A stretch of 64,000 nt of DNA from Sphingomonadaceae bacterium (lineage in GTDB: Bacteria > Pseudomonadota > Alphaproteobacteria > Sphingomonadales > Sphingomonadaceae): the NCBI GenBank assembly GCA_947463325.1, contig CANHQT010000010.1, positions 962-64,961 on the forward strand. The letters are read 5' to 3'. Positions 7,475-24,311 of the stretch are shown here, one piece after another. How positions within the stretch are numbered: the stretch's first letter is position 1; every line of letters starts with the position of its first letter. Position numbers and translations under genes: made by a program. Below the pieces are notes generated by a model that was given only the letters and a program-made list of their open reading frames with translations, was not told where the DNA came from and ran no database searches.

Positions 7475-8610
7475 GGGGCGCTCCTGATGGTGATGTCGGC
7501 GAGCGTGCGGCCGTCGGGTGCGGAGCGGGGCTGGGCGGTGATGCTATAGCCCGCCGCCTGGATCGCGATCAGCACAGGATTAATGTCTTCGGCGCGCGGT
7601 GCCCCCAATGTCGCCGAAAGCGTGCCATCGCCATTCCAGGAGAGGCTGTCGATGGCGACATTGGGCTGCGATTCCATCGCCGTGATCAGGCCGGCGATGA
7701 CGACTGCCGGCCGCGCGGTGCCGGCACCGCGCTGTGCCAGTTCGGCATCAAGCGCGGCAACCGCCTGATCAAGCGGCGGGGCAGGGCGCAGGACTGATGC
7801 AGCGGCTGCCTCCGCTTCGCTGTCGAGGCTGGCGATGTCGGCATGGGTATGGATGAGGCGCGCGACAGCGATAGCGATGCTGACCGCGATGATCAGCGCG
7901 ATGATGGTTGCCGCACGGCGCAGCAGCGCGCGGTCGATCAGCGGGGCGGGCCGCCGGGCGAAGGGGCCGGTGAGCAGCTCTACTGGCGCCGCGACGGCAG
8001 CGGCGATCAGTGCGGATTCAACCTCTGCCTTGCCGGCTTCGCGCAAGGGGGCGTCGCCGATGATGTGCGGGGTCAGCAGCGGATCATCGGCGAAGCTGCT
8101 GTCACGCCCGCGCACGACACGCTCGGGACCGAGTGTGCTGACCACCCAGGCGTTGGCGGGGTCGCCGGGAGCTGCATCGACCAGTGCGACCGCTCCAGCC
8201 GGAACAAGGCTATCGAATGCGAGCTCATGTGTGGCCGCCTCTGCCAGCCATTGCTGCATCGCCGCCAAAGCGACGGCGGCGACCGGTGCACATCCCTCGC
8301 CGTCACGGGGGCCGATGGCGACATGCAGCGTTTCTGGCGGGGCGATGCTTGTCTCGGCAGCGAGGAGGCGTGCGCCGACCTCTGCCTGCCGTTCGCTCAG
8401 CCCCGCAAAGCTGCTCTGATGCAGAATACAGGCGGATGCGGGCGCGATGCCGATGACGCGTGTTTCCCCATCTGGGGCGTCGGCTTGCGCCCAGATTGTC
8501 GGCCAGCCTTCGCCGTGCGCGACGATGCCACCATCGCGCAGACGCCACCAATGCGGGGCATCGCCAGCACGCGCGGCAAGCGCGATGATCAGGGCGTTGG
8601 CGGCGTTCAC
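7471..8610 (-). CDS. gspL: type II secretion system protein GspL
   Basis: 379 aa with a cytoplasmic domain, a single TM (AATIIALIIAVSIAIAV) and a periplasmic domain. Position in the operon fits gspL. Confidence 0.8.
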   Translation of the reverse strand: MNAANALIIALAARAGDAPHWWRLRDGGIVAHGEGWPTIWAQADAPDGETRVIGIAPASACILHQSSFAGLSERQAEVGARLLAAETSIAPPETLHVAIGPRDGEGCAPVAAVALAAMQQWLAEAATHELAFDSLVPAGAVALVDAAPGDPANAWVVSTLGPERVVRGRDSSFADDPLLTPHIIGDAPLREAGKAEVESALIAAAVAAPVELLTGPFARRPAPLIDRALLRRAATIIALIIAVSIAIAVARLIHTHADIASLDSEAEAAAASVLRPAPPLDQAVAALDAELAQRGAGTARPAVVIAGLITAMESQPNVAIDSLSWNGDGTLSATLGAPRAEDINPVLIAIQAAGYSITAQPRSAPDGRTLADITIRSAP

Positions 8611-8616
8611 CCAGGC

Positions 8617-9630
8617 TTATCCTTCACTGCCCCAGCTGCGGCGCACGACGCGGGCGCGCTGACCCTGTTCACCGGCATCAATCAGCGCGCTTGAACCCAA
8701 GGTTACATCCCCCAATCGCACATTCGTCTCCAACCGGAACCAGCGTGTCGTGAGCCGAACCTGGCTGGCGGCATCACCCGGCGGTGCGATACCGCCCAAA
8801 GCAGGATCCGCCCAAAAGCGATTGACGCTGCCATAGCCGCCGCTTGGCCGCGCTGCCAGTGCAGTCCTGGCTTGCGCCGGCGAAATCCGGTTGCCGGTCA
8901 GCATTTGCAGCAGCACCGCTTGCTCTGGCAGCAATGTGTTGACGTTGATGGGGGACAGATCGTCGGCCGGCAGCGCGCAGGTCCAGCGGCTGAGGCGTTG
9001 CGCAAGGGCGGGGGTCATGCCCGCGATCTGCGCCAGTTCACCTGCGCTTGCCATCGGCCGGTCTGCAGTGCGGCGGGCGGGGCTGGCGGCGGCATAGGCG
9101 GAATCTTCCGCGCCATTGGGCATGGCCGACTGGTCAGCATCGATCCAGTCCACTGCGCCTGCCACGATGCGGTCGGCGGTGGCGCGGTCGGTGCCGAGCC
9201 CTTGGAGCAGGGCAGTGAATTGCTGAATCGCGAGCGGGCGGGGCGGCGCAATGCCGCCGCTCTCTCCCGCTTGCGAGGTTGCCACCAGACTGTTGATGTT
9301 GAAGCAATTGCCGCCATCGGTCAGCCGCATTTCCGCCGACCCGCCGGGCAGCGGCAGGGTGAAGGTTCGGCCGTGCCAGCCGCCGTCGAGTGTCACCTGG
9401 CTGTCGTTCGCGGCCAGCAGCGTATCGATGCGGCGCAGCGCCAGCGCTTCTCCGGCCATCGCGAAATGGCGCGCCTGTTCCATTGCGGAGGCGCTCCCCG
9501 CCAGTCGTGTTGCCAGCGTCAATCGCTCGACCGCCGCAGCAGACACCACCGCCATCACCGCCACCAGCAACAGCACGGTGAGCAACGCCGCGCCCCGCTC
9601 GCGGGCGGGAAAGGCAGAGGAAGACTCCAC
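8617..9630 (-). CDS. gspK: type II secretion minor pseudopilin GspK
   Basis: N-terminus is MESSSAFPARERGAALLTVLLLVAVMAVV if GTG 9630 is used. An in-frame ATG at 9729 would read through a palindromic repeat element. The track ORF start at 9864 is an artefactual extension. Confidence 0.8.
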   Translation of the reverse strand: MESSSAFPARERGAALLTVLLLVAVMAVVSAAAVERLTLATRLAGSASAMEQARHFAMAGEALALRRIDTLLAANDSQVTLDGGWHGRTFTLPLPGGSAEMRLTDGGNCFNINSLVATSQAGESGGIAPPRPLAIQQFTALLQGLGTDRATADRIVAGAVDWIDADQSAMPNGAEDSAYAAASPARRTADRPMASAGELAQIAGMTPALAQRLSRWTCALPADDLSPINVNTLLPEQAVLLQMLTGNRISPAQARTALAARPSGGYGSVNRFWADPALGGIAPPGDAASQVRLTTRWFRLETNVRLGDVTLGSSALIDAGEQGQRARVVRRSWGSEG

Positions 9631-9638
9631 ATGCCCAT

Positions 9639-9723
9639 CGTCATTGCGAGCGAAGCGAAGCAATCTAGGGCGGTTTGCGCCTGCTCTGGATTGCCGCGTC
9701 GCCTGCGGCTCCTCGCAATGACG
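9639..9723. repeat. imperfect palindromic (REP/MITE-like) element in the gspJ-gspK spacer
   Basis: The 12-bp termini CGTCATTGCGAG (9639-9650) and CTCGCAATGACG (9712-9723) are perfect reverse complements. An inner GCAATC/GATTGC pair also matches. The arms carry the widespread TCATTGCGAGCGAAGCGAAGCAATC motif. Confidence 0.6.
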
Positions 9724-9731
9724 GTCCATGG

Positions 9732-10394
9732 TCACTGCGGAGCCTCCGGCGGGGGCAGGCCATCGGGACCGACGAGGAAGATCATCGTCAGTGGCCGGGC
9801 GTTGTTCCGGTCGAGAGTGAGTTCTATCGCGCGGGGAAGGCGGGCGGGATTGTCCGCGCTCCACCCATCGCTCCAGCCGCCGTCGGCATTGCGCACACGC
9901 CAGCGAGCGCCGGTGACATCGCGTACCAGCACTGCGGCTACCCCTTCGCCGCCGCCATCCACCGCCTGCGTGCTGCGGCGGACGAAATTGCCGTTTTCCA
10001 GCGTGTAGCGGGTGCGTTCGAGCCGCTCGATCCCGGCATCGTCGCTTGCCGCATGGGTGAAGGCGATGCCGCCGCCGTCCGTCACAAAGGCGGTTTGCGG
10101 TGCGCCGCTCGCGTCGCGCACCGCACGCGGCTGGGCGCTGGCGAGGTCGGCGGATAGCAGGGCGCGCGTGCGCAGGATTGCGCTGCCCTCTCCCAAGCGT
10201 TCGGACACGACGATTTGCGTATCGACGCTGGAGCGCAGCAGCATGACCCCCGCCGCCGAAACGAGCGCGAAGATCGCCAGCGCGACCAGCATTTCCACCA
10301 GCGTGAAGCCGTGTTCGGCGGAACGCCGCACGGGCGTGAAGCCGTGTTCGGCGGAACGCCAGGAGGAGGTGAATTCACGCTCCGACCGCGTCAT
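9732..10394 (-). CDS. gspJ: type II secretion minor pseudopilin GspJ
   Basis: Prepilin motif G|FTLVEMLVALAIFALV. ATG 10394 overlaps the gspI stop (ATGA). An alternative GTG at 10331 gives the classic short leader MRRSAEHG|FTLVEM. Confidence 0.8.
   Translation of the reverse strand: MTRSEREFTSSWRSAEHGFTPVRRSAEHGFTLVEMLVALAIFALVSAAGVMLLRSSVDTQIVVSERLGEGSAILRTRALLSADLASAQPRAVRDASGAPQTAFVTDGGGIAFTHAASDDAGIERLERTRYTLENGNFVRRSTQAVDGGGEGVAAVLVRDVTGARWRVRNADGGWSDGWSADNPARLPRAIELTLDRNNARPLTMIFLVGPDGLPPPEAPQ
10301..10360 (-). repeat. in-frame 33-bp-period tandem duplication inside the gspJ leader
   Basis: The 27-bp string GCGTGAAGCCGTGTTCGGCGGAACGCC occurs at 10301-10327 and again at 10334-10360, separated by GCACGG. 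It encodes RSAEHGFT twice. Confidence 0.9.
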
Positions 10395-10762
10395 TGTGCG
10401 GTCCGGATGATGGTCAGCGTCGCGCGGCCCCCACCGCCACTGGCGGTGATGTCTATGCGCAGCAATTCGGGATCGGCGGTCGGGCGGACATTGCGGGTGA
10501 CGCGCCATGTGCGCCCGGCGTTGCTCACAGTTTCGCTGGCGCCGCCGGTTGCGGGCGGGGCAGGATCGCTGGCGATGGTCGCCGCGACATTGGCAGCGAC
10601 GATCCCGGCGAGCGCATCGTCATTGAGATCCGCCGCTCCGCGCACGGTGAAGGCATCGAGCCGCACCAGAGCGAGTGCCGCGATGCTCAGCACCGCCAGC
10701 GCCACCAGCATTTCGAGCAGCGTGAAGCCCTGTTCCGATGGTGTCCGCACGCGCCGTTTCAT
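10391..10762 (-). CDS. gspI: type II secretion minor pseudopilin GspI
   Basis: MKRRVRTPSEQG|FTLLEMLVALAVLSIAAL prepilin N-terminus, 123 aa. Confidence 0.85.
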   Translation of the reverse strand: MKRRVRTPSEQGFTLLEMLVALAVLSIAALALVRLDAFTVRGAADLNDDALAGIVAANVAATIASDPAPPATGGASETVSNAGRTWRVTRNVRPTADPELLRIDITASGGGGRATLTIIRTAQ

Positions 10763-11220
10763 CGCACGCTCACGTCGCCCGCGCCGTCAATGATGACGCT
10801 CGCCTCGGTACCGCTGCGGGCGATGGTGATGGTGGCGCTCCGGTCAGGCAGGCCGACCCGGTCAAAGCTGACCCGTCCGGTTGCCGCGCCGCTGATGCTC
10901 GCCGCGGTTCCTTCGCGCCAGTCGTCACGCGACAGCCGGCCATCGGCGATCGGTTGCCACTCCGGCCCTTGATCGGTCCGGATGCGCCGTTCGAACCCGT
11001 AGCCGGAGGGCGAGACCCACAAGCCGTGCGTGCGTCCTTCGATGATTGCGCGGTCCCGCAAGGCCGCGACGCGTGCGGCGAGTTGCACGGCATCGGCGCG
11101 CGCGTTGCCGCCGGGCGGAGCCATGGTCAGAACGACGACACTCGCAGCCAGCCCGATCAGGGCGAGCACGATCATCAATTCAATGAGCGTGAAGCCGCGT
11201 TCGTCGGACCAGCCGGGCAC
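10759..11220 (-). CDS. gspH: type II secretion minor pseudopilin GspH
   Basis: (GTG)PGWSDERG|FTLIELMIVLALIGL prepilin N-terminus, 153 aa. Confidence 0.8.
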   Translation of the reverse strand: MPGWSDERGFTLIELMIVLALIGLAASVVVLTMAPPGGNARADAVQLAARVAALRDRAIIEGRTHGLWVSPSGYGFERRIRTDQGPEWQPIADGRLSRDDWREGTAASISGAATGRVSFDRVGLPDRSATITIARSGTEASVIIDGAGDVSVR

Positions 11221-11223
11221 AGA

Positions 11224-11715
11224 TCACCCTTCGCTGCCGTAAATGTCGGCATTCTCGTTTTCGCCACCGGGCGCCCCATCCGCGCCAAGCGAATAGACGC
11301 TGAACGGCGCGCCATCCTGCCCCGGCACAGCGAGCTGATACGGGCGGCCCCAGGGATCTTCGGGCAGGCTGCGGACATAGCCGCCGGGGCGATAGCGCGA
11401 TGGATCGGCAAGGCCGGCCGGAGCTGCCCTGAGTGCGGCGAGCCCGTCAGCCGCATTGGGGTAGGTAAGGTTGTCGAGCCGGTATTGCTCCATCGCCTGT
11501 TCGAGCGTCGCAATGTCGGCGCGCGCCTTGGTCACCATTGCGCGGTCCTGACTCGGCAGGACGTTGATGAGGACGACTGTCGCCAGCAGGCCGACGATGA
11601 ACAGCACGACCATCAGTTCGGTCAGCGTAAAGCCGCGCTCGTCGCGCGGACGGCGCTCCACGGGCGCGCGGTTGCGGGTGAAATCGGCGAACAGGGCAAG
11701 GAGCAGGAGGCGCAT
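11224..11715 (-). CDS. gspG: type II secretion major pseudopilin GspG
   Basis: G|FTLTELMVVLFIVGLLATVV...DRAMVTKARADIATLEQAMEQYRLDN is typical GspG. ATG 11715 gives a 28-aa leader. GTG 11661 would give a 10-aa leader. Confidence 0.9.
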   Translation of the reverse strand: MRLLLLALFADFTRNRAPVERRPRDERGFTLTELMVVLFIVGLLATVVLINVLPSQDRAMVTKARADIATLEQAMEQYRLDNLTYPNAADGLAALRAAPAGLADPSRYRPGGYVRSLPEDPWGRPYQLAVPGQDGAPFSVYSLGADGAPGGENENADIYGSEG

Positions 11716-11717
11716 GG

Positions 11718-12932
11718 TCAGGGGCCCGTCAGTTGCTGGAGCTGCAGGATCGGCAGCAGGATGGAAAGGATGATAAGCGCGACGATGACGCCCATGACGA
11801 CGATGATGAGCGGTTCGAGCAGCGCCATCGCGGTCGCGGTGAACCGGTCGAACTCATTCTCGAGATAGTCGGCCGCGCGCTCCAGCATCACTTCGAGCCG
11901 ACCCGAGCTTTCCCCGCTGGCGGCGAGATAGACCAGCAGCGGCGGGAAAATCTTGGCATCGCGCATGGCGGCAGAAAGGCTGCCACCGCCGCGCACCTGT
12001 TCGACGATGCTCTCCGTCGCTTCGGCAAGACGGCGGTTGCGGATGGTGGGGATGGTGAGGCGCAGTCCTTCGACCAGCGGCAAGCGGCTCGACACCATGG
12101 TCGAGAGGGTGCGGGCGAAGCGGGCGGCGTGCAGATCGCGCAGCAGCCGCCCGATCAGCGGCAGTTTGAGAAGCCGGCTGTCGAAGGCGAGGCGGAAGGC
12201 GGGGCGGCGCAGCAGTGCGGCAAAGCCGGCACCCGCGGCAGCCAGTGCAAGCAGCGCCAGCCACCACCAATTGGCAGCAATGTCAGACAAAGCGATGACG
12301 ATGCGGGTGAGCAGCGGCAATTGCTGGCCCACCGTGTCAAACTGTTCGACCACGCGCGGCACCACCCAGATCATCAGCGCAGCGACCACCAGCACCGCGA
12401 CGGTCGCAAGCACGATCGGATAGGCAAGCGTCGCCATCAGCTTGCCGCGCACCTCCGCCTGCCGTTCGAGTAGCGCGGAGAGGCGATCGAGAATGACCGG
12501 CAGCGAGCCTGAGCTTTCGCCGGCGGAGATCATCGCGCGATAGAGCGGCGGAAAGCTTTTCGGCTCACGCCCCATAGCCTCGGCGAGGCGGCGACCCTCG
12601 ACAATGCCTGAGTGGACGGTGCCGATGATGGCGCGAACATGCGCGGCCTCCGACTGGCGGGAGGACGTGCGCAGCGCCTCTTCGAGCGGACTGACTTCTG
12701 TCAGCGTCGCAAGCTGGCGGGTGAACAGTGCGAGTTCACGGTGGGAAAGCCTGTTGCGCTCAAGGGTCAGCAGCGCCTTTTTCGGTTCCGGTGGCGCACC
12801 CGGCGCACATTCTATGACGAACAGCCGTTTCTGCGCGAGCGCGGCGCGCGCGGCCTCCCGATCGGGCGCGTCGATATGGCCGCGCTTTTCGCGACCAGCA
12901 GGATCAACGGCGAGGTAGCGGAAATCAGCCAT
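11718..12932 (-). CDS. gspF: type II secretion inner-membrane platform protein GspF
   Basis: MADFRYLAVDPAGREKRGHIDA... with duplicated GspF domains and 3 TM segments. ATG 12932 overlaps the gspE 3' end. The track ORF start at 13085 is an extension. Confidence 0.9.
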   Translation of the reverse strand: MADFRYLAVDPAGREKRGHIDAPDREAARAALAQKRLFVIECAPGAPPEPKKALLTLERNRLSHRELALFTRQLATLTEVSPLEEALRTSSRQSEAAHVRAIIGTVHSGIVEGRRLAEAMGREPKSFPPLYRAMISAGESSGSLPVILDRLSALLERQAEVRGKLMATLAYPIVLATVAVLVVAALMIWVVPRVVEQFDTVGQQLPLLTRIVIALSDIAANWWWLALLALAAAGAGFAALLRRPAFRLAFDSRLLKLPLIGRLLRDLHAARFARTLSTMVSSRLPLVEGLRLTIPTIRNRRLAEATESIVEQVRGGGSLSAAMRDAKIFPPLLVYLAASGESSGRLEVMLERAADYLENEFDRFTATAMALLEPLIIVVMGVIVALIILSILLPILQLQQLTGP

Positions 12933-14427
12933 CGGCGGTTTCGGGTTCCGCCTCGCGCCGCGAGATGCGGATGGCTTCCTCGGGCGTGGTTTCGCCAGCC
13001 CGGACAAGCGCGCGTGCCGCCGAACCCAGCGTCGGCGCATGCAGGAAGGCGTGGCGGGCGATGATTGCCTCATCGCCGCCGTCATTGATCAGGCGGCGGA
13101 TAGTCTCATCGACCTTGAGCGCCTCAAACACGCCGATGCGGCCCTTGTAGCCCGTCTGCCCACATGCCGGGCAGCCATGCGCGCGATAGACGATGGTGCC
13201 GGGGTCGAAGCCGAGCAGGCTGGCAACGCTGCCTTCGGCTTGCACAGGCTCCCGACATTCGGGACACAGCCGCCGCACCAGCCGCTGGGCGATGACGGCG
13301 CGCAGGGAGGAGGCGATGAGGAAGGGTTCGACCTTCATATCGCGCAGGCGGGTGATCGCGCCGATCGCATCATTGGTGTGGACGGTCGACAGCACCAGAT
13401 GGCCGGTGAGCGATGCCTGCACCGCGATATCCGCGGTTTCGCGGTCGCGGATTTCGCCGACCATCACCACGTCCGGATCCTGGCGCAGGATCGCGCGCAA
13501 ACCGGCGGCGAAGCTCAAACCCACCTTGGCATTGACCTGTGTCTGACCGACGCCATCGACCGCATATTCCACCGGATCTTCGACGGTCAGGATATTGCGG
13601 CTGCCGTCATTCAATATCTTGAGCGCGGCATAAAGCGTCGTCGTCTTGCCCGATCCTGTCGGACCGGTGACGAGGATGATGCCATTGGGTTCGGCGAGCG
13701 CGCCGCGCAATATGGTGTCCGCCGCACCGTTAAGGCCGAGCAGGTCGAAATCGATGCCTGCCGTATCCTTGTCGAGCAAGCGCAACACCACCCGTTCACC
13801 GGCGCGGCTGGGCAGGGTCGAGACGCGCACGTCGAGGCTCTTGCCACCAAGTGTCAGGCCGATGCGGCCATCCTGCGGCACGCGCCGCTCGGCGATATCG
13901 AGGCGCGCCATCACCTTGATGCGGCTGACCACCACCGGTGCGACATGCGCCGGCATCTTCAGCACCTCGCGCAGCAGGCCGTCGATGCGCATGCGGACGA
14001 CAAGCGCGCTCTCATAGGGTTCTACATGGATATCCGACACGCCTTGGCGCGCCGCATCGGCGATGATGCCGTTGATGAGGCGGATGGCCGGCGCATCGTC
14101 CGCGCTGTCGAGCAGATCGTCAGCAGTGGGCAGGTCGGTGGCGAGGATATCAAGGCTCGATTCGCCGACTGCGAGCGCGCCTGCGACTGCGGCGTGCGAA
14201 TCCATGGCATAATGGTCTGACAGGAGCTCGTCGAACCGCGCAGCGCTCACGAAATCGACGTCGAAGCCGTGGCCGAGGTGGCGGCGCACCTCAATAAGGA
14301 CACGCGGGTCCGCGCCCTCGCGCAGGGCAATGTGCGTCGCCGCCGGGTTGGCATCGACGATGATCACGCCATGCTTCAGCGCGAAGGCATAGGGGATGTC
14401 GATCGGAGGAGAGGCGATCGGGTCCAT
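12925..14427 (-). CDS. gspE: type II secretion ATPase GspE
   Basis: Walker A GPTGSGKTTT, Asp/His boxes and a C-terminal tetracysteine motif (CPECR...CPACGQTGY). Start is ATG 14427 (MDPIASPP...). Confidence 0.95.
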   Translation of the reverse strand: MDPIASPPIDIPYAFALKHGVIIVDANPAATHIALREGADPRVLIEVRRHLGHGFDVDFVSAARFDELLSDHYAMDSHAAVAGALAVGESSLDILATDLPTADDLLDSADDAPAIRLINGIIADAARQGVSDIHVEPYESALVVRMRIDGLLREVLKMPAHVAPVVVSRIKVMARLDIAERRVPQDGRIGLTLGGKSLDVRVSTLPSRAGERVVLRLLDKDTAGIDFDLLGLNGAADTILRGALAEPNGIILVTGPTGSGKTTTLYAALKILNDGSRNILTVEDPVEYAVDGVGQTQVNAKVGLSFAAGLRAILRQDPDVVMVGEIRDRETADIAVQASLTGHLVLSTVHTNDAIGAITRLRDMKVEPFLIASSLRAVIAQRLVRRLCPECREPVQAEGSVASLLGFDPGTIVYRAHGCPACGQTGYKGRIGVFEALKVDETIRRLINDGGDEAIIARHAFLHAPTLGSAARALVRAGETTPEEAIRISRREAEPETADG

Positions 14428-14431
14428 GGGC

Positions 14432-16603
14432 TTACCCTTGCGGTGGCGGCGGTCCGGCGTCGCTCGGCGGAATGTCGACTGGTTCGACCGGGGCGGGCAA
14501 TGCCCGTGCTGCACCGATCACCTGATCGTCGGAGCGGGCGACGACGCCGGGCGGCACAGTGCCGAGATAATCGCGCACAAGCAGATCGATCTCGGGCTCG
14601 CTGTCGGGATCGCGGGCGAGTTGGTCGGCGCGAACAAAATTGTATCGCCGGGCGGTCAGCGCCGCATTGTCGGCCCGGTCGCGCAGGATTGTCGGGCGGA
14701 TGAAGACCATGAGGTTGGTCTTCGCCCGGCTGCGCGAGCGGGAACGGAACAGTTCGCCGATAACCGGAATGTCGGAGAGGAGCGGAATACGCTCTATGGT
14801 GCGCCGTTCGTCATCATTGAGCAGACCGCCGATGGCGAGGATGTCGCCATCATCGACGGTCAGTACTGTTTCGAACAGCCGCTTGTTGATGATGAGATCG
14901 CTCGACCGGCTGGAAACGGGCCCTGCAACCGAAGACACTTCCTGGCTGATGTAGAGCTTGACCTCGCCCGAGGCGTTGATCTGTGGCGTGACGGTGAGTT
15001 TGATGCCTACCTCCTCACGCTCGATGGTCCGGAAGGCATTGTCGAAATTGTCGGAGAGCGCCTCGCCGGTGGTCACTGGCACTTCTTGTCCGACCAGGAA
15101 GCGGGCTTCGCTATTGTCGAGCGTGACAATGTGCGGCGTGGCGAGCAGGTTCGATGCGGTGTCCGACTGGACGGCGTTGATGATCGCGCCGAACACAGTG
15201 TTGCGGCCAATGTCTCCAGCGAAGCCCGCAAAGCCGCCGGTCGCGCCGAGGATCTGGCGCGCCGCGGCCTCGGTGACGCCGCTGCCGAAGGGGTTTTGCT
15301 GTGTCGTGGTGACGACATTGCCGTCGATGGTCGTCGTCTCACGCGACAGTTCATAACCGGCCGCCGCTGCGCCGAGCGTCAGGATGTTCGGGTTGGCGTT
15401 GGAATAGTTGGTGGCGAGGAAGGGGATATTCTCCCCGCCGACGAGGAATTGGACGCCCAGTTGGCGTGCCGCATTATCCCCGATCTCGACAATGATTGCC
15501 TCGACCAGGACTTGCTGGCGGCGAACGTCGAGCTGGCGGATGAGTTCACCCAGCATGCGCTGGATGTCGGCATTGCCGGCAACGATGATCGCATTGGCGC
15601 CTTCGTAGCGGGTCACGATGGCGGGGCCGCGTGTCGCGATGCTGGCGCCGTTGCCAGCACTGGTGGTGGCGGCAACCGGGGCGGCGGCAGGTGCTTCGCT
15701 GCCTTCACTGCGCGGCTGTGCGGGCGAGGGCGTGGCGGCCGGATCGCTGCCGCCGCCGATCAGCGATTGCAGGGTCGGGAGCAGCCGCGCTGCATCGGCA
15801 TGTTCAAGGAAATAGACCCGGATCTCGGCCTGGCTGGCGGCGCGCGCGTCAAGCTCCTCGGCGAGCTGGGCAAAGCGTGCGACCTGTGCCGCATCGCCAC
15901 GGATAGCGATGCTGTTGGATGTATCGAAGGCGGCAACCGTCACCCCGCCTGCAGCCGGTGCCCCGTTGGCCCCGGCGGCTGCCGCACCGAGTTGCTGGAG
16001 CGAGGCTGCAATCTCACGCGCACCGGCGTTGGTGAGGTGGATCAGGCGCGTGGCGCTGGCATCGCGGTCGATAGAGGCGACCAGCGCGCGGATACGGCGG
16101 ACATTGTCGGCAAAGTCGACCACCACCAGGCTGTTGGCATTGCGGTTGGCGGTGACCGAACCCTGCTGGCTGACCAGCGGACGCAGCGTTTCAATGGCGG
16201 CGGTTGCATCGATATAACGCAGGCGCACGATTTCCGTGACGAACTGGTTGGCGCCGGCATTGCCGCTGCCGATCCGCCCCGGCTGCGAGGCTGCGCCGTC
16301 GAGCGGCTGGATGCGATAGCTGCCGTTAGGCAACGGGATGGCGACAAGGCTGTTGGCGCGCAGTGTCGACAGGAAAATCTCGAAATATTCGGCGCGGTTC
16401 AGCGGTCGCTCGGTGACAACGGTGACGCGGCCTTGCACCCGCCCGTCGACGACGAAGGTGCGGCCGGTGACGCGCGCGGCATCGGCAATGAAGGCGCGGA
16501 TGTCGGCGTCGCGAACATTGAGCACATGCTGTGCGAGCGCGGGCTGCGCGGCGCAGACGATGGCAGTTGCGGCCAGGAGTGCGGCTGGGAAACGGCGGGT
16601 CAT
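14432..16603 (-). CDS. gspD: type II secretion secretin GspD
   Basis: 723 aa with a signal peptide, N-domains and a C-terminal secretin domain (...VPLLSDIPVIGELFRSRS...). Confidence 0.95.
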   Translation of the reverse strand: MTRRFPAALLAATAIVCAAQPALAQHVLNVRDADIRAFIADAARVTGRTFVVDGRVQGRVTVVTERPLNRAEYFEIFLSTLRANSLVAIPLPNGSYRIQPLDGAASQPGRIGSGNAGANQFVTEIVRLRYIDATAAIETLRPLVSQQGSVTANRNANSLVVVDFADNVRRIRALVASIDRDASATRLIHLTNAGAREIAASLQQLGAAAAGANGAPAAGGVTVAAFDTSNSIAIRGDAAQVARFAQLAEELDARAASQAEIRVYFLEHADAARLLPTLQSLIGGGSDPAATPSPAQPRSEGSEAPAAAPVAATTSAGNGASIATRGPAIVTRYEGANAIIVAGNADIQRMLGELIRQLDVRRQQVLVEAIIVEIGDNAARQLGVQFLVGGENIPFLATNYSNANPNILTLGAAAAGYELSRETTTIDGNVVTTTQQNPFGSGVTEAAARQILGATGGFAGFAGDIGRNTVFGAIINAVQSDTASNLLATPHIVTLDNSEARFLVGQEVPVTTGEALSDNFDNAFRTIEREEVGIKLTVTPQINASGEVKLYISQEVSSVAGPVSSRSSDLIINKRLFETVLTVDDGDILAIGGLLNDDERRTIERIPLLSDIPVIGELFRSRSRSRAKTNLMVFIRPTILRDRADNAALTARRYNFVRADQLARDPDSEPEIDLLVRDYLGTVPPGVVARSDDQVIGAARALPAPVEPVDIPPSDAGPPPPQG

Positions 16604-17460
16604 TGGCCTCCGGCGGGCAGGGTGATGGCGATGGGAATAGTCCCTGCTCCGCGCTCGACCTCTAAGCTGAGGCGCGCGCCGGGCTGGACTTGCGAGAGAA
16701 AAGTGGTGGCATCCGACGCAGCGGTGATACGCCGGCCGTTGATGCTGCGGATAACATCACCGCCGCGGAAGCCCGCAGCGGTAAAGGCACGGCCATCACC
16801 GGTCTGGCCGACCGCGATGCCGGTGACACGGCCACCCTCACTGCGCGGCGAAAAACTGATGCCGGCGCGGATCGATTGCTGGCTCAGCGGGGTAGTGCCA
16901 GCAGCGGAGCCCGGCACCTGTGCGGGCGGAGTGGCAATGGCCGGTGCCGCACCGTCGGCGGGGGCGGTACCCGGCGCCTGCGATTGATCAAGATAGAGCA
17001 GCTCACGCCGCCCGGCATTGTCGATTTCGACATGATCGAAATGGACTGCGGCGAGGCGGACGCCCGGCTGGATTTCTTCACCCACGCCAATGCTGGCCTG
17101 AACGCCATCGGCAGTGCCGATGATCGCCGATCCCAGCGAGGTCGCCTGGTTCATGCGCACGCCGAACAACTGGATCTGCAGGCTCGTGACCTGGCTAGTC
17201 CCGGTCGCTGCAGCAGGGGCGGTGCGGTAGAAAGGATCGATGCGTGCAAACAGCTCGGCGCGCGCTTCGGCGGGGATTTCGCTCGCCGATCGCGGGCTCC
17301 AATCCCCCACCGGTCCTGTTGGTGTGAGTATCGCGAACAGGAGCCGAACCGACTGCACCACGAGGATCAGCAGCAGCACGCCGATCAGCAGCTGGCCCAG
17401 CCAGCCACCGGGCAACGCAGCGATGCGTCGGCGCAGGCGCTCGTCGATCATCAACTGCAT
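16600..17460 (-). CDS. gspC: type II secretion protein GspC (with C-terminal PDZ-like domain)
   Basis: N-terminal TM (LLIGVLLLILVV) and a C-terminal PDZ-like segment (GFRGGDVIRSINGRRI). It is the first gene of the operon, and its stop overlaps the gspD ATG. Confidence 0.75.
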   Translation of the reverse strand: MQLMIDERLRRRIAALPGGWLGQLLIGVLLLILVVQSVRLLFAILTPTGPVGDWSPRSASEIPAEARAELFARIDPFYRTAPAAATGTSQVTSLQIQLFGVRMNQATSLGSAIIGTADGVQASIGVGEEIQPGVRLAAVHFDHVEIDNAGRRELLYLDQSQAPGTAPADGAAPAIATPPAQVPGSAAGTTPLSQQSIRAGISFSPRSEGGRVTGIAVGQTGDGRAFTAAGFRGGDVIRSINGRRITAASDATTFLSQVQPGARLSLEVERGAGTIPIAITLPAGGQ

Positions 17461-17508
17461 GGTTTGGCTACTTTCCCCCTTCGGTCGAGTCGCGGCTAGG
17501 CTGGACTC

Positions 17509-17526
17509 ATGACCCTTTGGTGACAG
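17509..17526 (-). promoter_or_regulatory. Pho-box-like site upstream of gspC
   Basis: The minus strand reads CTGTCAC-CAAA-GGGTCAT, two 7-mers 11 bp apart. It is co-oriented with gspC and its proximal end is 48 nt from ATG 17460. Confidence 0.4.
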
Positions 17527-17549
17527 TCAGACTACTCTTATGTTGCAAC

Positions 17550-17605: not shown

Positions 17606-20335
17606 TCAGAATTTCAGCGTCGCGCCGAACGAGAAGCTCCTGCCGATATCGTAGCTGTTGATGATCAACTCACTGCCGTTGAGGCGCTGGCGCTCGACAT
17701 AGTTGGTGCCGCTGAGGTTGCGCGCCTCGAACTTCATTTCGAGCTGCTGGCCGAACAGCGTGACCGCTTCGCGCAGCACCAGATCGACCCTCAGACCCGG
17801 GCGCTCGATGATGTCGGGCGTCAGGTTGGGACCGCGCTGGGTTACGCGCGGGCTGGCATAAGTGACCAGGATCGACTGCTGCGACAGCCGGTCCTCATGC
17901 TCCAGGCTGAGCTGCAGGTTGAGCAGATGATCGGACTGGCCGGTCATCTTCAGGCGCTGGCTGGTATCGAACACCAGGCTGGCGTCGATCGGGTTGGGCT
18001 GGCTGGTGAAGCTGATCGTCGTGTCACCAGGCTGCACGTTGATCCGGCTGTCGGTGTAGCTGTAGTTGGCGATCACCGCGAAGCGGCGTGCTTCGAAGAA
18101 GCTGCCCCAGTCATAGAGCGGGAAATATTTCCGCGCTTCCAGCTCGATGCCGAAAAGTTCCGCCGAAGGGGCGTTGGCAAAGCTGGTGACGAGGCTCGAA
18201 CCCAGATTGACGGCGGTCGCCTCGATCGGGTTTTTGATGTCCTTATAGAAGCCCGCGATCGACAGCTGCTGGTCGCGCCCGAAATACCATTCGTAACGCG
18301 CTTCGATGTTGGTCAGTTCGCTGTCGGTCAGGAACTGGTTGCCGAAGAAAGTGCGCTGCGATTCGGTGTCGCGATAGGGCTGCGGTGCCAGCTCGCGGAA
18401 CTGTGGGCGGGCAATCGTCTTGGACGCGGCCAAACGCAGCTGCATGTCCTCGGCGAAGTTCCAGGTCAGCGTGCCACCCGGCAGCCAGTAATCTTCCTGA
18501 ATGCGCGAAGCGGTGAGCGGCGGTGCGCCGAACAGCGAGCGCGGCGTTACCGTCTGGTCTCCATCTTCATAGCGGACACCGATGTTCAGCGTCAGGCCAT
18601 CAACCAGTTCGGCTTCTGCCATCACATAGCCGGCGTGGGTGACGAGTTCGGCTGCGAACGATGCCGAACCCAGACCGCCGGTGGTTTCGCGCAGCAGCAC
18701 GTTCCAATTATAGGCGTTGAAGTCCGAGAGGAGATAATCGATCCGCTGCTGCGCCACTTCCACCGGCAGTGCGCCTGCGGGGAAATATTCAAAGTCGCGA
18801 CGCAGTGAATCGCGGTCATTGTCATAATAGGCATAGCCGGCAGACAAGGTGATGTCGGTTGCAGTGGGTAAACGCCAAGCGAGGTCAGCCGAGCCCGCCC
18901 AGACGGTGTCGGTCAGCGTGCTGAACGAAACACCAGCATTCTGACCCGGTGAACGCAGATCGTTGACATAGTCGCGCACGGTTTCGTTGAACGCATAGCT
19001 GTAGGTGCGTTCATAAGGGGCGTTGCGCTGCGATTCCGCCCATCCGCCGCGGACGTTCAAAGACACATCGCCGAAACGGAATTCGCCGACTGCCTGCGTG
19101 TCAAACAATTGCCGTTCGAACCAGGCGGTAAGGCCGGTCTGAAGCGTCGCTTCCGGTCGGGTCGTGCTGGGGCTGACGGTATCGAAATTATTGCCGACCG
19201 CCGCCCGCGATTCCTTTAGCGTGTCGCGGATGAAGATGTTGGTGAAACGGAGCTTATGTTCCGCGAAATCGACAACCGTGCTGGCCATCAGATTGGCGAC
19301 CATGCGGTTTTCAGTGACGAGGTAACGGAAGCGGCTGCTTTCCACGAGCGCTTCGTTGGCGCTGCCGGCGGCACCGGTGCGTGTGCCCGCTTCCTGCAAG
19401 CCGCCGCGTGTCCGCCAGCTGTTCGACAGGCCACCGGCAAAAATGACGCCAACAGAGGCGCCGCCGAGGTCGATAGTGTCGCCGAAAGCGATATCGCCGG
19501 ACCAGTTCACGGGCACGTCGCCGCGCTGGATCACCGTGGTCGGTGCGTTGACCAGACTGGCGGTGATGTCCTGAATCTGTCGGCGGGTGAAATTGGCGCC
19601 CTGGACGACACGATTGCCGCTGGCGATGGCGTTGGCGAGCAGGCCGGGGATGTCGCGGGTGCCGTCATCGAAGCCGGTCCAGTCCCAGTCGCCGCCGTAA
19701 TGGAAGTAGCCGACCTCTCCGGTCGTTTCCGTGTCGCCGCCGATCGAGAAGCCAAGGTCGAGGAAGCCTTCTTCGGGAGCCGAGCGGGTGGTGAGGTTGA
19801 TCACCCCGCCGCCGAATTCACCCGGATAGTTGGCCGAAAAGCTTTTCTGCACCACGGTCGATGCGAGGATCGAGGTCGGGAAGAGGTCCAGCGGCACGAC
19901 GCGGCGCAGCGGTTCGGGGCTGGGCAGCGGCAGGCCGTTGAGCAGCGCAAGCGAATAGCGTTCGCCGAGGCCGCGGACATAGACGAACCGCCCGCCGACA
20001 ACGGAAAGGCCGGTCACGCGGCCGAGCGCGCCGGCAATGTCGCCTTCACCGGTGCGCGCGATATCCTCTGCAGACAGCACCGAGACGACTTCGGGTGTCG
20101 CGCGGATCGGGTTGGGGATGAAACGGCCGCGAACGACGATGTCGCCCGTGTCTTCGAAGTCGGCGCCGGGGCCGGAGATTTCGACCTCGTCGCCAGCCGG
20201 ATCGGGTTCGGCCGCTTCGGGCGGGGTCGATTCAGCAGGCGGTGTCGTTGCAGGCGTGCCTTGCGCAAGGGCGGGCGCGGCGGTGAGCGCGGTGCCAGCC
20301 AGCAGCAGGGCAGAGAAAAGGCGGAACTGGGTCAC
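17606..20335 (-). CDS. TonB-dependent outer-membrane receptor
   Basis: 909 aa with a signal peptide, a Pro/Glu-rich linker, a plug domain (VVRGRF...VYVRGLGERYS...LNG) and a C-terminal beta-barrel ending ...GATLKF. Confidence 0.9.
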   Translation of the reverse strand: MTQFRLFSALLLAGTALTAAPALAQGTPATTPPAESTPPEAAEPDPAGDEVEISGPGADFEDTGDIVVRGRFIPNPIRATPEVVSVLSAEDIARTGEGDIAGALGRVTGLSVVGGRFVYVRGLGERYSLALLNGLPLPSPEPLRRVVPLDLFPTSILASTVVQKSFSANYPGEFGGGVINLTTRSAPEEGFLDLGFSIGGDTETTGEVGYFHYGGDWDWTGFDDGTRDIPGLLANAIASGNRVVQGANFTRRQIQDITASLVNAPTTVIQRGDVPVNWSGDIAFGDTIDLGGASVGVIFAGGLSNSWRTRGGLQEAGTRTGAAGSANEALVESSRFRYLVTENRMVANLMASTVVDFAEHKLRFTNIFIRDTLKESRAAVGNNFDTVSPSTTRPEATLQTGLTAWFERQLFDTQAVGEFRFGDVSLNVRGGWAESQRNAPYERTYSYAFNETVRDYVNDLRSPGQNAGVSFSTLTDTVWAGSADLAWRLPTATDITLSAGYAYYDNDRDSLRRDFEYFPAGALPVEVAQQRIDYLLSDFNAYNWNVLLRETTGGLGSASFAAELVTHAGYVMAEAELVDGLTLNIGVRYEDGDQTVTPRSLFGAPPLTASRIQEDYWLPGGTLTWNFAEDMQLRLAASKTIARPQFRELAPQPYRDTESQRTFFGNQFLTDSELTNIEARYEWYFGRDQQLSIAGFYKDIKNPIEATAVNLGSSLVTSFANAPSAELFGIELEARKYFPLYDWGSFFEARRFAVIANYSYTDSRINVQPGDTTISFTSQPNPIDASLVFDTSQRLKMTGQSDHLLNLQLSLEHEDRLSQQSILVTYASPRVTQRGPNLTPDIIERPGLRVDLVLREAVTLFGQQLEMKFEARNLSGTNYVERQRLNGSELIINSYDIGRSFSFGATLKF

Positions 20336-20434: not shown

Positions 20435-21979
20435 TCAGCCGGCGGCGTTGATCGCGGTGCAGCTTGCCTGATCAGCGGCAAGGCCGCAGGTCCAGCCACG
20501 CCACCAATTGTCGTTCGCGTCGCGGACGGCGCCGATATAGGCGACGTTCGAGAAGAAGGCCGACAGGCTGGTCGGGTTGAACGGCGTCACCGCGGTTTCA
20601 GCCGAACCGTTGATGAAGGTCGCGGTCAGCGTCGATGCCGTTGTGCTGCTGTTGTTGGTGCCGCCGCCGAACAGCGATGCCACCGCCGCCGCATCGACAT
20701 CACTGTCGCTGACGAAGGCAGTCGCGCAGTTGAGCAGCACTGAATTGAAGCGCAGCGGGCCGAGTTCATCGATCGTGGCATTAGCGGCCTGAACCGTCGC
20801 TGCCGTATCGATGTCGAGGCACTGGCCCGTCGTGCCGGTTGCGCGGACCACGCCGTTGACCAGCGTGCCATCCATGCCGCCACGCAGGTGGATCGGCGAG
20901 CTGGCGCGCGGCGTCACGAAGGTGAAGTTGGACAGGAGCAGGTTGGTGCGCGGGGTGGCGTCCACCGGCTTGTCGGTCGAATCACCCTCGATCAGCTTGT
21001 CGGCACCGCCGGCGCGCTGGGTAACGATCGCGAACTGGATCGCGCCCTTCCAGCCGGAGTCCATGTCGAGGCTGTCGTCGTCATTACCAGTCAACACCAG
21101 ATAGCGCTGGTTCACGCGGCCGCCGAACCATTCGATCCCGTCGTCCGAGCTGTTGTGGACCTGGACATATTCGAAGATCGTGCCCGAACCCACGCCGGCC
21201 AGCGTGATGCCGTTAAGTTCGTTGTTGGTGTCCACGCGGAAGCCCGGATAGCGGACCTGCAGATAACGGATCGAACCCGATGAATCGCTCGGGTTGGCGC
21301 CGCCATAAATCGAACCGGCGGTTCCTTCGACCGGTGCCTGGCAGGCGTTGGTGCCGCCGGTGGCGCCAGCATCGGCGCAGTCGCCGATCGGCGCACGGCC
21401 GAGGATGACGAGGCCGCCCCATTCACCGATCGATTCGCCGGTCACCGAACCGACGACATTGCTGCGGCTGGTCATGACGACAGGGCGCGAGGCTGAGCCA
21501 TCGACGTTGAGCTGCGAGCCGCGATTGACGACGAGGAAGTCCGCGCCCGAGGCGCCGAAGATGGTGACACCAGCGTCGATGGTCAGCGTGCCGGCCTGCG
21601 CGCCGGCGACCGGATTGTTGACGTCGGGGCCACGGTCATCACCGACCTGGACCTTGCCCGACAGCGAATAGATGGTGCCGGCGAGGTTCTGCAGGCGCAG
21701 CGCGCCGCGGATGGTGCCGGAGATCTGGCAGTTGCGCCGCGTGTCGCTCGTGCTCACCTGAATGGTGCCGCTGTCGACGGTGCCAGTGGGGCAGCTTGCA
21801 GCCGGCGTGCCCGGAGTCGGGGTCGGTGTGGTGGGCGTCGGCGTCGGGGCGGGAGCAGGCGGCAGAACGACCAGATTGCCTTCGCCGGGCGAGGCAATGT
21901 CTTCAGCGCCGCAGGCGGCCAGCGTGAGGGAGGCGACGCCGGCGAGCAGCGCCGTGCGGGCAGAAGCGAAATGTGCCAT
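20435..21979 (-). CDS. lipoprotein of unknown function (lipobox, Pro/Thr linker, probable beta-helix-like body)
   Basis: Signal peptide plus lipobox LTLAAC|G, then PPAPAPTPTPTTPTPTPGTP, then a Gly/Asn/Thr/Val-rich body with an NSSDDGIEWFGG motif. I recognise no family. Confidence 0.75.
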   Translation of the reverse strand: MAHFASARTALLAGVASLTLAACGAEDIASPGEGNLVVLPPAPAPTPTPTTPTPTPGTPAASCPTGTVDSGTIQVSTSDTRRNCQISGTIRGALRLQNLAGTIYSLSGKVQVGDDRGPDVNNPVAGAQAGTLTIDAGVTIFGASGADFLVVNRGSQLNVDGSASRPVVMTSRSNVVGSVTGESIGEWGGLVILGRAPIGDCADAGATGGTNACQAPVEGTAGSIYGGANPSDSSGSIRYLQVRYPGFRVDTNNELNGITLAGVGSGTIFEYVQVHNSSDDGIEWFGGRVNQRYLVLTGNDDDSLDMDSGWKGAIQFAIVTQRAGGADKLIEGDSTDKPVDATPRTNLLLSNFTFVTPRASSPIHLRGGMDGTLVNGVVRATGTTGQCLDIDTAATVQAANATIDELGPLRFNSVLLNCATAFVSDSDVDAAAVASLFGGGTNNSSTTASTLTATFINGSAETAVTPFNPTSLSAFFSNVAYIGAVRDANDNWWRGWTCGLAADQASCTAINAAG

Positions 21980-22088
21980 GAATCAAGGCTCCGGGTAGAT
22001 GTGCGAAAACTCAGACTCGCAGCGCCCGGGGATATGGATCAGCCCCTCACCCCCAGGCGGCTGCCGGGGGAGCGTCTAGGATGGCTTC

Positions 22089-22172
22089 ATGACTCTGCCG
22101 TGCCATTTCAGTGACACCGCGGTTGCATCTGCATGACGCAACAATGACTTATAGATTGCAGTCCTGTGACAC
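22089..22172 (-). promoter_or_regulatory. array of eight 11-bp-phased Pho-box-like half sites (four tandem boxes)
   Basis: Plus-strand pentamers ATGAC, GTGCC, GTGAC, GTTGC, ATGAC, ATGAC, ATTGC, GTGAC start at 22089, 22100, 22111, 22122, 22133, 22144, 22155 and 22166. Confidence 0.5.
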
Positions 22173-22182
22173 AGGCATAGGC

Positions 22183-22219
22183 AAACGGGCCGGATCGCCC
22201 CCCGGCGACCGGCCCGTTT
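22183..22219 (-). terminator. rho-independent-type terminator after the TPR-like gene (A/T-flanked, potentially bidirectional)
   Basis: AAACGGGCCGG / CCGGCCCGTTT form an 11-bp stem, extended by TCGCC/GGCGA. It lies 19 nt downstream of the stop at 22238. Confidence 0.6.
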
Positions 22220-22237
22220 TGCTGGATTGATGGTGGT

Positions 22238-22621
22238 TTAGCGTGCGGCGAGCGCTGGCATCATGCGGCTCAGCGCGCGGCGAGCAACATCACGGCTGTT
22301 CGCCACTTCGCCATTGGCGAGTTCGAGCATCACATCCCGGCGATGGTCGCGCACTGTTTCGAACAGGCGCTGAGCCGATTGGATGCGCCCCGTGCGCATG
22401 TGGATATAGCCAAGATTGATCAGCCGTGCCGGATCATCGGCGGCTATCCCTTGGGCTGATTCGATCTGCACTTCGGCGGTGCGCAGATCATTGTCGCGCA
22501 AAGCATCATAGCCCAGCGAGCCGCGCGCATATCCGATTTCGCCCTGTGCTGTCTGGGCCATGGCTGTGCCGCCAAGGGCTGATGCACCGAGCGCGATGGC
22601 GAGTGTCAAAGCCTTCATCAC
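22238..22621 (-). CDS. small exported TPR-like protein
   Basis: Signal peptide MKALTLAIALGASALGGTAMA|Q and helical repeat-like segments (LINLGYIHMRTGRIQSAQRLFE). The track uses GTG 22621. ATG 22618 is more likely. Confidence 0.7.
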   Translation of the reverse strand: MMKALTLAIALGASALGGTAMAQTAQGEIGYARGSLGYDALRDNDLRTAEVQIESAQGIAADDPARLINLGYIHMRTGRIQSAQRLFETVRDHRRDVMLELANGEVANSRDVARRALSRMMPALAAR

Positions 22622-22652: not shown

Positions 22653-22670
22653 ATGACAGTTTAATGACAT
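22653..22670 (-). promoter_or_regulatory. near-consensus Pho box upstream of the TPR-like gene
   Basis: The minus strand reads ATGTCAT-TAAA-CTGTCAT. Its proximal end is 34 nt from ATG 22618, and GGGAGAAGGG precedes the start codon. Confidence 0.45.
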
Positions 22671-22691: not shown

Positions 22692-24311
22692 TTAGCCGGC
22701 AAGCTGGTTCCGGCCGCGCAAAACATGGCGGTTGGCAGTGGTCGCCATTGCTGTTTCAGGGCTGCGTACGCTGTCCCACATCCGCCATTCGCTGCTCGCC
22801 TGATCGGGTGTCAGCGTGACCGCCAGATAGCCGCGCCGTGAAGTATCGACCCAATTGAGTGCCGGGTTGGCGGAGCGCAGCGCGGCAGCCACGGTCGCCG
22901 GCGGGACCGGGAAATAGGATTCGATGCCGGGCGAGGTCACACCGGGTGTTGCAAACTCGACACCGGCAGCGCGCCCGCCATTGTCGAGATCAAAGCCCCA
23001 GCCATTGTGGCTGTCCCCCGTCAGCACGACGAGGTTGGCCCCCGCCGCCTGTGCAGCGCCCAGCAACCTTGCGCGGGCCGCAGGATAGCCATCCCATGCG
23101 TCGAGGTTGAGCGGCAGGCCGACGGAGGCAACCATCGCCGCCGCGCCCGCCCGTCGCCGTACAATCTCCGGCGCATCGGCAGGGATCCAGCTCGAAAGCT
23201 CGCGCGGCGCGTTGAGCCGCCCCATGATCACTTGCTGCGCCACAATCTGCCAGCGGGTCCCGGCGCGGGCGGAACCGGCGATCAGTCCTTCGATCCATGC
23301 TTCCTGCTCGGCGCCCAGCATCGATCGGGCAGTGTCCTGCCAATCGCCATCACGGAACCGCGTGAGTGCCGCGCCCAGCTCCCCGCCGGACAGGCCCGAG
23401 ATCAGCCGCTGGTAATCATGCGGCTGGTCTCGCCCGATGATGCGGGTGTCGGGCAGGGCGATCGTCGCCAGCGTGCCGATCTGGTAGCTGCGCCAGCGCG
23501 CATCGCTGACCGGCATCCATTCCTGCCACGCTTGAAGCGCCGCGCGGCGCCGTGCCATCCAGTCGCCTTCGCTGTCCGGATTGTGGTTTTCCGCGCCGCC
23601 CGACCAGGCATCATTGGCGAACTCATGATCGTCCCACATGGCGATCATCGGCATCTGCTGATGAAGCTGCTGCAACGCCGCATCGCTGCGATAGCTGGCG
23701 TAGCGCAGGCGATAGTCGGCGAGTGCGACCGTAGCGTGCAGTGGCAGCATCTCGCGCCCCGGCAGCGGCCGGTCCGGGTAGGAGCCTTGGGGGTATTCGT
23801 AGATATAGTCGCCGAGGTGGACAGCGAGGTCGATGTCCCCGCGGCGTGCCGCATCGGCATAAGCGTTGAACCAACCAAAGCCGATGTTGGAGCAGGAAAA
23901 GACGCCGAGCCGGAACTGGTCGGCATCGCCTTCGGGCAAAGTGCGGGTCCGCCCGGTGCAGCTCACCGACCCGTCGGGCGCGACGAAGCGGAAATAGTAC
24001 CAGCGCCCCGGCGCAAGGCCATCAACCACAATTTTGGCCGTGTGATCGCGCATCGCCGATGCCGTGACGCTGCTGCCTGCAACGACGCGTGCGAAATCCA
24101 AAGTCTCCGCTATCTCTGCGGTCAGGCGCGCTTCGCCCGAGCTGCTGACGAAGCGTGTCCACAGCAGCACCGAATTTGCCGACGGCTCACCGCTCGCCAC
24201 GCCATGGGTAAAGCCGCGCGCGGCGACGATCTGCGCTGCGCCGGGCACCGCCAGCGCGCCAGTTCCCAATGCAGCGAGCTTGATCAGCAGACGGCGGTCG
24301 ATGGCATTCAT
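22692..24311 (-). CDS. phoD: alkaline phosphatase D (PhoD family), Tat-exported
   Basis: Twin-arginine signal MNAIDRRLLIKLAALGTGALAVPGAAQ and PhoD-like metallophosphatase motifs (GDYIYEY, WDDHEFAND, VVLTGDSHN). Start is ATG 24311. Confidence 0.9.
   Translation of the reverse strand: MNAIDRRLLIKLAALGTGALAVPGAAQIVAARGFTHGVASGEPSANSVLLWTRFVSSSGEARLTAEIAETLDFARVVAGSSVTASAMRDHTAKIVVDGLAPGRWYYFRFVAPDGSVSCTGRTRTLPEGDADQFRLGVFSCSNIGFGWFNAYADAARRGDIDLAVHLGDYIYEYPQGSYPDRPLPGREMLPLHATVALADYRLRYASYRSDAALQQLHQQMPMIAMWDDHEFANDAWSGGAENHNPDSEGDWMARRRAALQAWQEWMPVSDARWRSYQIGTLATIALPDTRIIGRDQPHDYQRLISGLSGGELGAALTRFRDGDWQDTARSMLGAEQEAWIEGLIAGSARAGTRWQIVAQQVIMGRLNAPRELSSWIPADAPEIVRRRAGAAAMVASVGLPLNLDAWDGYPAARARLLGAAQAAGANLVVLTGDSHNGWGFDLDNGGRAAGVEFATPGVTSPGIESYFPVPPATVAAALRSANPALNWVDTSRRGYLAVTLTPDQASSEWRMWDSVRSPETAMATTANRHVLRGRNQLAG

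Follow-up and report, generated by a model that had tools for sequence, protein, structure and literature searches.

The Pho box is built of 11-nt units, each with a 7-nt core resembling CTGTCAT and a 4-nt spacer. PhoB monomers bind these units head-to-tail, and at the promoters that PhoB activates, the promoter-proximal box replaces the -35 element and contacts sigma-70 (PMC4415409). In Caulobacter, the motif recovered by PhoB ChIP-seq is a pair of YGTCAYR repeats separated by 4 nt (10.1101/741363). Operators with more than the minimal pair of units have been described in several bacterial groups. In E. coli, the pstS and ugpB promoters carry tandem 7+4-nt units, the proximal box taking the place of the -35 element ~10 bp from the -10 (PMC4415409); more than one box is found at the strongly regulated promoters, and seven Pho units have been proposed for ugp (PMC2275107). 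In Streptomyces, PhoP operators with up to six units have been footprinted in S. coelicolor and eight units have been reported at S. natalensis phoRP; in such multi-unit operators, binding is nucleated at the core units, which are well conserved, and extends cooperatively to extension units, whose conservation is poor (PMC2275107).

A PhoB-controlled operon with a gene order of particular relevance here has been studied in C. crescentus, where the synteny of elpS (cc0170), cc0171 and the genes for the T2SS (type II secretion system) has been described, an arrangement that Sphingomonas alaskensis and Hyphomonas were noted to share (PMC2996285). The genes CCNA_00169 (elpS) and CCNA_00170 (the receptor), as well as those for GspG and GspI, belong to the direct PhoB regulon of C. 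crescentus (Lubin et al. 2016, tabulated in the supplement of PMC11208175). The read counts of elpS increase from ~300 to ~290,000 (log2 fold change ~11), and elpS and the receptor gene are both induced ~1000-fold, while the T2SS genes change only few-fold (PMC11208175). Furthermore, the induction of P169-lacZ by phosphate starvation requires phoB (PMC5172544). Multi-unit Pho operators and the PhoB control of this operon are therefore already known. On Pho boxes in sphingomonads, a search of the literature, within the material that was searchable, returned nothing relevant and no account of the array described below.

The window analysed here, i.e. the whole stretch of 64,000 nucleotides from contig CANHQT010000010.1 of a Sphingomonadaceae bacterium, contains a minus-strand gene cluster with the same order. 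An ElpS-like surface or secreted lipoprotein of 514 aa is encoded at 20435..21979; it begins with MAHFASARTALLAGVASLTLAACG, and has a lipobox (LAAC-G) that is conserved in the alignment of its homologues, a Pro/Thr linker and a Beta_helix_4 domain (PF28492). This family was assigned from precomputed matches, since the protein had no match to the local Pfam and NCBIfam; more than 2500 homologues were found, all with PF28492 and all unnamed. The second gene of the operon (17606..20335, minus strand) encodes a TonB-dependent receptor with plug and beta-barrel domains, which belongs to the TonB-Xanth-Caul subfamily and is the counterpart of cc0171/CCNA_00170. It is followed by the type II secretion operon gspC-D-E-F-G-H-(I)-J-K-L-M-N (6285..17460, minus strand), identified by its Pfam matches; a tRNA gene (5424-5497, plus strand) lies just past the end of this operon. 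The features of the elpS family are thus all present, namely a lipobox-bearing lipoprotein of ~50 kDa and, after it, a TonB-dependent receptor and gspC-N. In two loci of the genus Caulobacter (L062 and L071), the lipoprotein is 52-53% identical to that of the window and the order lipoprotein-receptor-gspC-gspD is the same. Judging from this synteny and these Caulobacter-genus homologues, the operon of the window can be regarded as orthologous to the elpS operon of C. crescentus. On the other side of the lipoprotein gene, a small TPR-like protein of 127 aa is encoded at 22238..22621 (minus strand; weak TPR_19/TPR_2 matches), between the array and a gene for a PhoD-family alkaline phosphatase or phosphodiesterase (22692..24311, minus strand). 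The latter protein carries a Tat signal (RRLLIK) and matches PhoD (5.9e-95) and PhoD_N (2.6e-24), and its match to the NCBIfam model AlkPhosPhoDBac is below the cut-off. Only a 46-bp spacer separates phoD from the preceding DUF3667 gene (24357-25435), and no recognisable Pho box was found upstream of either of these two genes. Among 80 genomic loci of relatives, the receptor gene is located downstream of the lipoprotein gene in 77 and the small TPR gene upstream of it in 24.

Between the TPR gene and the lipoprotein gene, eight 11-bp units, each formed by a 7-nt PhoB half-site and a 4-nt spacer, occupy 22085..22172 on the minus strand, as identified by direct reading of the sequence, core scores and conservation. 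Going down from 22172 along the minus strand, units 1-4 read GTGTCACagga, CTGCAATctat, AAGTCATtgtt and GCGTCATgcag, and units 5-8, down to 22085, are ATGCAACcgcg, GTGTCACtgaa, ATGGCACggca and GAGTCATgaag. A first-pass annotation, made from the letters of this DNA, had placed the low plus-strand ends of the heptamers at 22166, 22155, 22144, 22133, 22122, 22111, 22100 and 22089; all eight are exact when both strands are read, and so are the seven consecutive 11-bp steps without slippage that it had described. The units are arranged head-to-tail, their strand being that of the lipoprotein operon, and the end of the last heptamer is 110 bp away from the start codon at 21979, both as previously noted. 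Of the 11-bp frames flanking the array (TGCCTATgcct and CCATCCTagac), neither matches the half-site. The eight units accord with the form of a Pho box, i.e. at least two head-to-tail 11-nt units with a YGTCAY-like core; a perfect TGTCAC is present in only two of them, two others have TGCAA[TC] variants, and outside the core the units are only ~50% alike. Tandem Repeats Finder returned no repeat between 21900 and 22400; the array is too degenerate for this program, and is therefore a degenerate array of a short motif rather than a sequence duplication. The spacers (AGGA, CTAT, TGTT, GCAG, CGCG, TGAA, GGCA and GAAG) are not clearly A/T-rich, with 15 of 32 positions A or T (47%) vs 35% throughout the window, and the G+C content of the array is 50% vs 65% for the window.The array was scored as the sum of eight phased hexamer cores against TGTCA[TC] at a fixed period, with a maximum of 48. 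It reaches 40/48, while the periods 9, 10, 12 and 13 give at most 29 anywhere in the window. When the whole window was shuffled 200 times with its dinucleotides preserved, the best score averaged 27.5 and never exceeded 31; 20,000 shuffles confined to the local 141 bp, or to the 88 bp of the array, peaked at 30-31. Scored against YGTCAY, the consensus from Caulobacter ChIP-seq, the array reaches 41/48, compared with 29 for the best period-11 array elsewhere in the window and with a maximum of 34 in shuffles (mean 30.4, sd 0.95). The opposite strand of the array also reaches 34/48, because TGTCAC is nearly palindromic. A chance origin of the array is excluded.

A 22-nt position weight matrix (PWM) was trained on 23 non-redundant gspC-promoter sites from other genomes, and the window was scanned with it against shuffled controls, as the first-pass annotation had proposed. 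For successive pairs of units, the scores are 18.7 bits (units 2-3), 13.1 (3-4), 9.0 (5-6), 5.0 (1-2), 3.8 (6-7), -1.6 (7-8) and -3.0 (4-5). In shuffled sequence, the probability per position of a score of at least 3 is ~6e-4 and that of a score of at least 5 is ~3e-4; thus five of the seven successive registers of the array are individually significant and exceed the shuffle expectation. The earlier description of the array as four tandem Pho boxes holds for the eight phased units, while their division into four dimer boxes is ambiguous. If the units are paired in order, the putative boxes would lie at 22151-22172, 22129-22150, 22107-22128 and 22085-22106 (minus strand), but the PWM prefers the pairs 2-3, 3-4 and 5-6 over 7-8, and the promoter-proximal pair (ATGGCAC / GAGTCAT) is weak by this measure.

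The array occupies the space between a terminator-like hairpin and a putative -10 element. The hairpin, which is GC-rich, ends the TPR gene and forms the upstream border of the array (22180..22222, minus strand; RNA fold -34.8 kcal/mol, z = -5.2); the array starts eight bases further on. The hairpin is missing from the terminator scan because its T tail is only 3 nt long. On the downstream side, the ninth 11-bp frame (ccatCCTAGAC) is occupied by the -10-like sequence CCTAGAC (22074..22080, minus strand, core CTA at 22077-22079), which was recognised by its conservation across loci. Within it, CTAGAC (22079-22074) begins 9 nt after the last half-site and resembles what we take to be the CTA-type -10 of alphaproteobacterial promoters, such as those of Caulobacter and Sinorhizobium, and it is a candidate for the -10 element of the lipoprotein operon. 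The proximal box is thus located ~10 bp before the putative -10, in the place of the -35 and in the orientation of the gene. The -35 position itself (22097-22102) reads CACGGC, which is unlike TTGACA, and a sigma-70 consensus scan of the minus strand gave no -35/-10 promoter match, as expected for an activator-dependent promoter.

The leader between the putative -10 and the start codon of the lipoprotein gene is ~90 nt long and contains a stable hairpin (22018..22064, minus strand; -34.7 kcal/mol, z = -3.9). It had no match in an Rfam gathering scan of the whole window, in which the tRNA at 5424-5497 was the sole match. Single-sequence folds of the leaders hinted at a recurrent G-rich/C-rich hairpin, and RNAalifold predicted no consensus pairs for 31 orthologous leaders, the alignment of which was poor. 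In 46 orthologous leaders the mean z was -0.68, the same as in the array-region control (p = 0.38), and a conserved leader structure was dropped as a candidate, only the window's own hairpin being significant. The motifs GGGGG and GATTCG occur at similar positions in many orthologous leaders (~+10 to +70 after CCTA).

The promoter was compared across the 80 loci and two close relatives, whose lipoproteins are 96% and 81% identical to that of the window. Spacing was evaluated without an anchor in 69 non-redundant upstream regions, by counting same-strand pairs of hexamers that match at least 5/6 positions. Half-site pairs at distances of 11, 22, 33, 44 and 55 bp were counted 27, 44, 27, 15 and 9 times, while other spacings mostly gave 0-3 pairs (at most 7) and coding controls gave ~0; since the orthologue search for sites used the very consensus under test, these counts are partly circular for the identity of the motif and not for its phasing. 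That pairs at 22 bp outnumber those at 11 bp points to an alternation of strong and weak half-sites. When the loci were anchored on CTA, ~45 of them had cgcgCCTAg after the array, its register matching that of the window, with the CCTA box 85-120 nt ahead of the start codon. The 11-bp phasing that the first-pass annotation had suggested looking for in related Sphingomonadales promoters is thus conserved, including its register to the -10. The uninterrupted in-phase run varies among loci from 1-2 up to 8 units, in register with CCTA; runs of eight were found in the window, which has the highest total score, in locus L020 and in Sandarakinorhabdus, where one unit is weak. On the other hand, the two Caulobacter-genus loci differ from the window, with ~3-4 phased units and strong sites 22 bp apart. 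In a four-way alignment with relatives whose lipoproteins are 96%, 81% and 79% identical, positions 3-6 of the units (GTCA) are conserved in 1.9-2.5 of 3, compared with 1.0-1.6 of 3 for the spacers and ~1.2 of 3 for unit positions 1-2; the close relatives retain the GTCA cores, while the spacers and flanks drift.

Other Pho sites are present in the window. A canonical Pho box (ATGTCAT taaa CTGTCAT, 22653-22670, minus strand) with 12/12 core matches precedes the TPR gene, 480 bp upstream of the array. It adjoins a box of inverted orientation (plus strand, ATGCAAC attt CTGTCAT, 22673-22690), and the two have the top PWM scores in the window, 25.0 and 22.0 bits. The inverted box, which ends 2 bp before the stop codon of phoD, might drive an antisense transcript or serve as an upstream auxiliary site. 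Furthermore, direct reading revealed a four-unit PhoB-type array before gspC (17494..17548, minus strand; PWM 14.0 bits). It reads TTGCAAC ataa GAGTAGT ctga CTGTCAC caaa GGGTCAT gagt, is followed by ccagCCTAGCC in the same -10 geometry, and is placed after the hairpin that ends the receptor gene. In 77 loci, near-canonical two-unit boxes (at least 11/12) were found in only three places and never in coding sequence: immediately before the lipoprotein gene, at 750-1250 bp upstream, where they precede its left neighbours, and at 4250-4500 bp downstream, before gspC (19 loci). The genes for type II secretion thus seem to be served by a separate Pho promoter. The eight-unit array is accordingly found near a phosphate-acquisition gene, that for PhoD, and near other Pho boxes; no regulator gene is present in its neighbourhood, and phoB was not found in the 64-kb window.

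Taken together, the units, their register and conservation, the Pho neighbourhood and the Caulobacter orthologue support, at the level of sequence, the PhoB-type reading of the first-pass annotation, and the array is very probably the operator of a PhoB-dependent promoter for the elpS-like lipoprotein/TonB receptor operon. Direct repeats phased at 11 bp are generic for winged-helix response regulators, so the array might instead be bound by another member of the OmpR/PhoB family whose signal is not phosphate but, for instance, envelope stress or iron. Several units do deviate from CTGTCAT, and TonB-dependent receptors are often under other systems; but the conserved core GTCA[CT] is that of the PhoB ChIP consensus, perfect Pho boxes and the PhoD gene adjoin the array, the orthologous promoter of Caulobacter depends on PhoB, and no candidate regulator is encoded nearby, all of which make this explanation very improbable. 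Still less credence can be given to the array being a non-functional degenerate repeat, e.g. spacer DNA with an intrinsic bend or an 11-bp microsatellite that has decayed. The low similarity of the units outside the core and the absence of a Tandem Repeats Finder call would be compatible with such an origin, but no shuffle came near the score of the array, the conservation in close relatives is specific to the core, and the phase and the -10 register are kept across genera in spite of differing unit sequences; the comparative data effectively refute it. A CtrA site (TTAA-N7-TTAA, also spaced by 11 bp), a Fur box and plasmid iterons were rejected as well, in view of the core GTCA[CT], the direct rather than palindromic repeats and the 11-bp unit.

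A third explanation keeps PhoB and adds other factors to it. The array would then be a composite operator, in which PhoB sites are combined with CcrM GANTC sites and a MucR-type silencer that PhoB partly displaces, so that cell-cycle or epigenetic state and phosphate state jointly set expression. The model for this is P169 of C. crescentus, which has four GANTCs, is the top hypomethylated locus and a target of MucR1/2, and gains methylation in a PhoB-dependent manner upon phosphate starvation (PMC5172544). The two promoters are alike in that they serve orthologous operons, of which that of C. crescentus is a direct PhoB target, and in that both contain GANTC sites, the control by MucR and methylation being documented for the Caulobacter promoter. 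Across 46 non-redundant promoters, GANTC sites number 1.7 per 240 bp vs 0.44 in the loci overall, a ~4-fold enrichment that is, however, largely relative to coding DNA and drawn from related genera as non-independent samples. Its hot spots are the proximal half-site (GAGTCAT; 22091-22095 in the window) and the leader at +29..+50 (GATTCG), and the 50% G+C of the array amid a 65% G+C window is also in favour of a composite operator. Against it, the induction in Caulobacter is independent of MucR and GANTCs (PMC5172544), only three GANTCs are found in 280 bp of the window (22091-22095, 22014-22018 and 21980-21984), and the leader of the window lacks GATTCG, its hairpin loop reading GATCC, which is not a GANTC. 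We consider the composite operator rather unlikely, and a CcrM/MucR layer, if there is one, would possibly be an addition to PhoB control and not a replacement of it.

Under PhoB control, the array could work as follows. Upon phosphate limitation, phosphorylated PhoB would bind successive 11-bp units head-to-tail on one face of the DNA, with an occupancy of up to eight monomers or four dimers. By analogy with the operators described above, the better units 1, 3, 4 and 6 may act as core sites, and cooperativity between the proteins may fill the weaker units, including the conserved weak proximal pair ATGGCAC / GAGTCAT. This pair, at the place of the -35, would recruit sigma-70 RNA polymerase to the CTAGAC -10, and the promoter would be inactive as long as PhoB~P is absent and very strongly induced once it is present. 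Such a tight off-state and high induction would fit the ~1000-fold response of the Caulobacter orthologue, as well as the smaller, four-unit array at the less strongly induced gspC promoter. PhoB binding in the sphingomonad host, its stoichiometry, the hierarchy of core and extension units and the transcription start are what we infer from these comparisons.

Compared with the known multi-unit operators, the array is unusually long and clean, but it reveals no new mechanism and is an ordinary, if clear, instance of a familiar type of switch. It shares with pstS and ugpB of E. coli the tandem 7+4-nt units and the proximal box in place of the -35, and its eight contiguous units equal or exceed the largest number reported for that organism; E. 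coli differs in belonging to another phylum-level lineage, whereas the window is from a high-GC genome with an alphaproteobacterial CTA-type -10. The class III 'complex operators' of Streptomyces PhoP are similar in their strict 11-nt direct repeats, variable number of units and cooperative core/extension filling, and differ in their half-site (GTTCACC) and regulator lineage; some of them repress, whereas the array of the window is positioned to activate. It is conceivable, though doubtful, that the number of units (1 to 4 boxes in Sphingomonadales, locked to the -10) serves as an evolvable control of gain and threshold, in which a weak proximal box filled by spreading yields an ultrasensitive ~1000-fold switch, and GANTCs in the half-sites (GAGTCAT) and leader (GATTCG) couple this switch to the methylation/silencer state.

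These results provide a confident regulatory annotation for three promoters, those of the TPR gene, elpS-TBDR and gspC-N, as a phosphate-scavenging island of an uncultured-type sphingomonad, and extend the PhoB-ElpS-T2SS module, which was defined by experiment in Caulobacter, to the Sphingomonadales. In addition, the natural series of promoters with 2 to 8 units is suited to asking how operator length sets the amplitude or threshold of induction.

Two minor observations concern the relatives. Beta_helix_4 lipoproteins of 820-900 aa are found in Hyphomonas, Rhodospirillaceae and others, including one record labelled Synechococcus, and their extra region of ~350 aa is missing from the sphingomonad and Caulobacter forms. 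In Allosphingosinicella and related loci (L019 from Sphingomonas metalli, L025, L030 from Altererythrobacter, L033 and L052), the region ~100-250 bp ahead of the lipoprotein gene has 11-bp-phased ATGACAA repeats as its distal units. They are oppositely oriented half-sites, with a single proximal box downstream of them, and the operator architecture is remodelled in this lineage.
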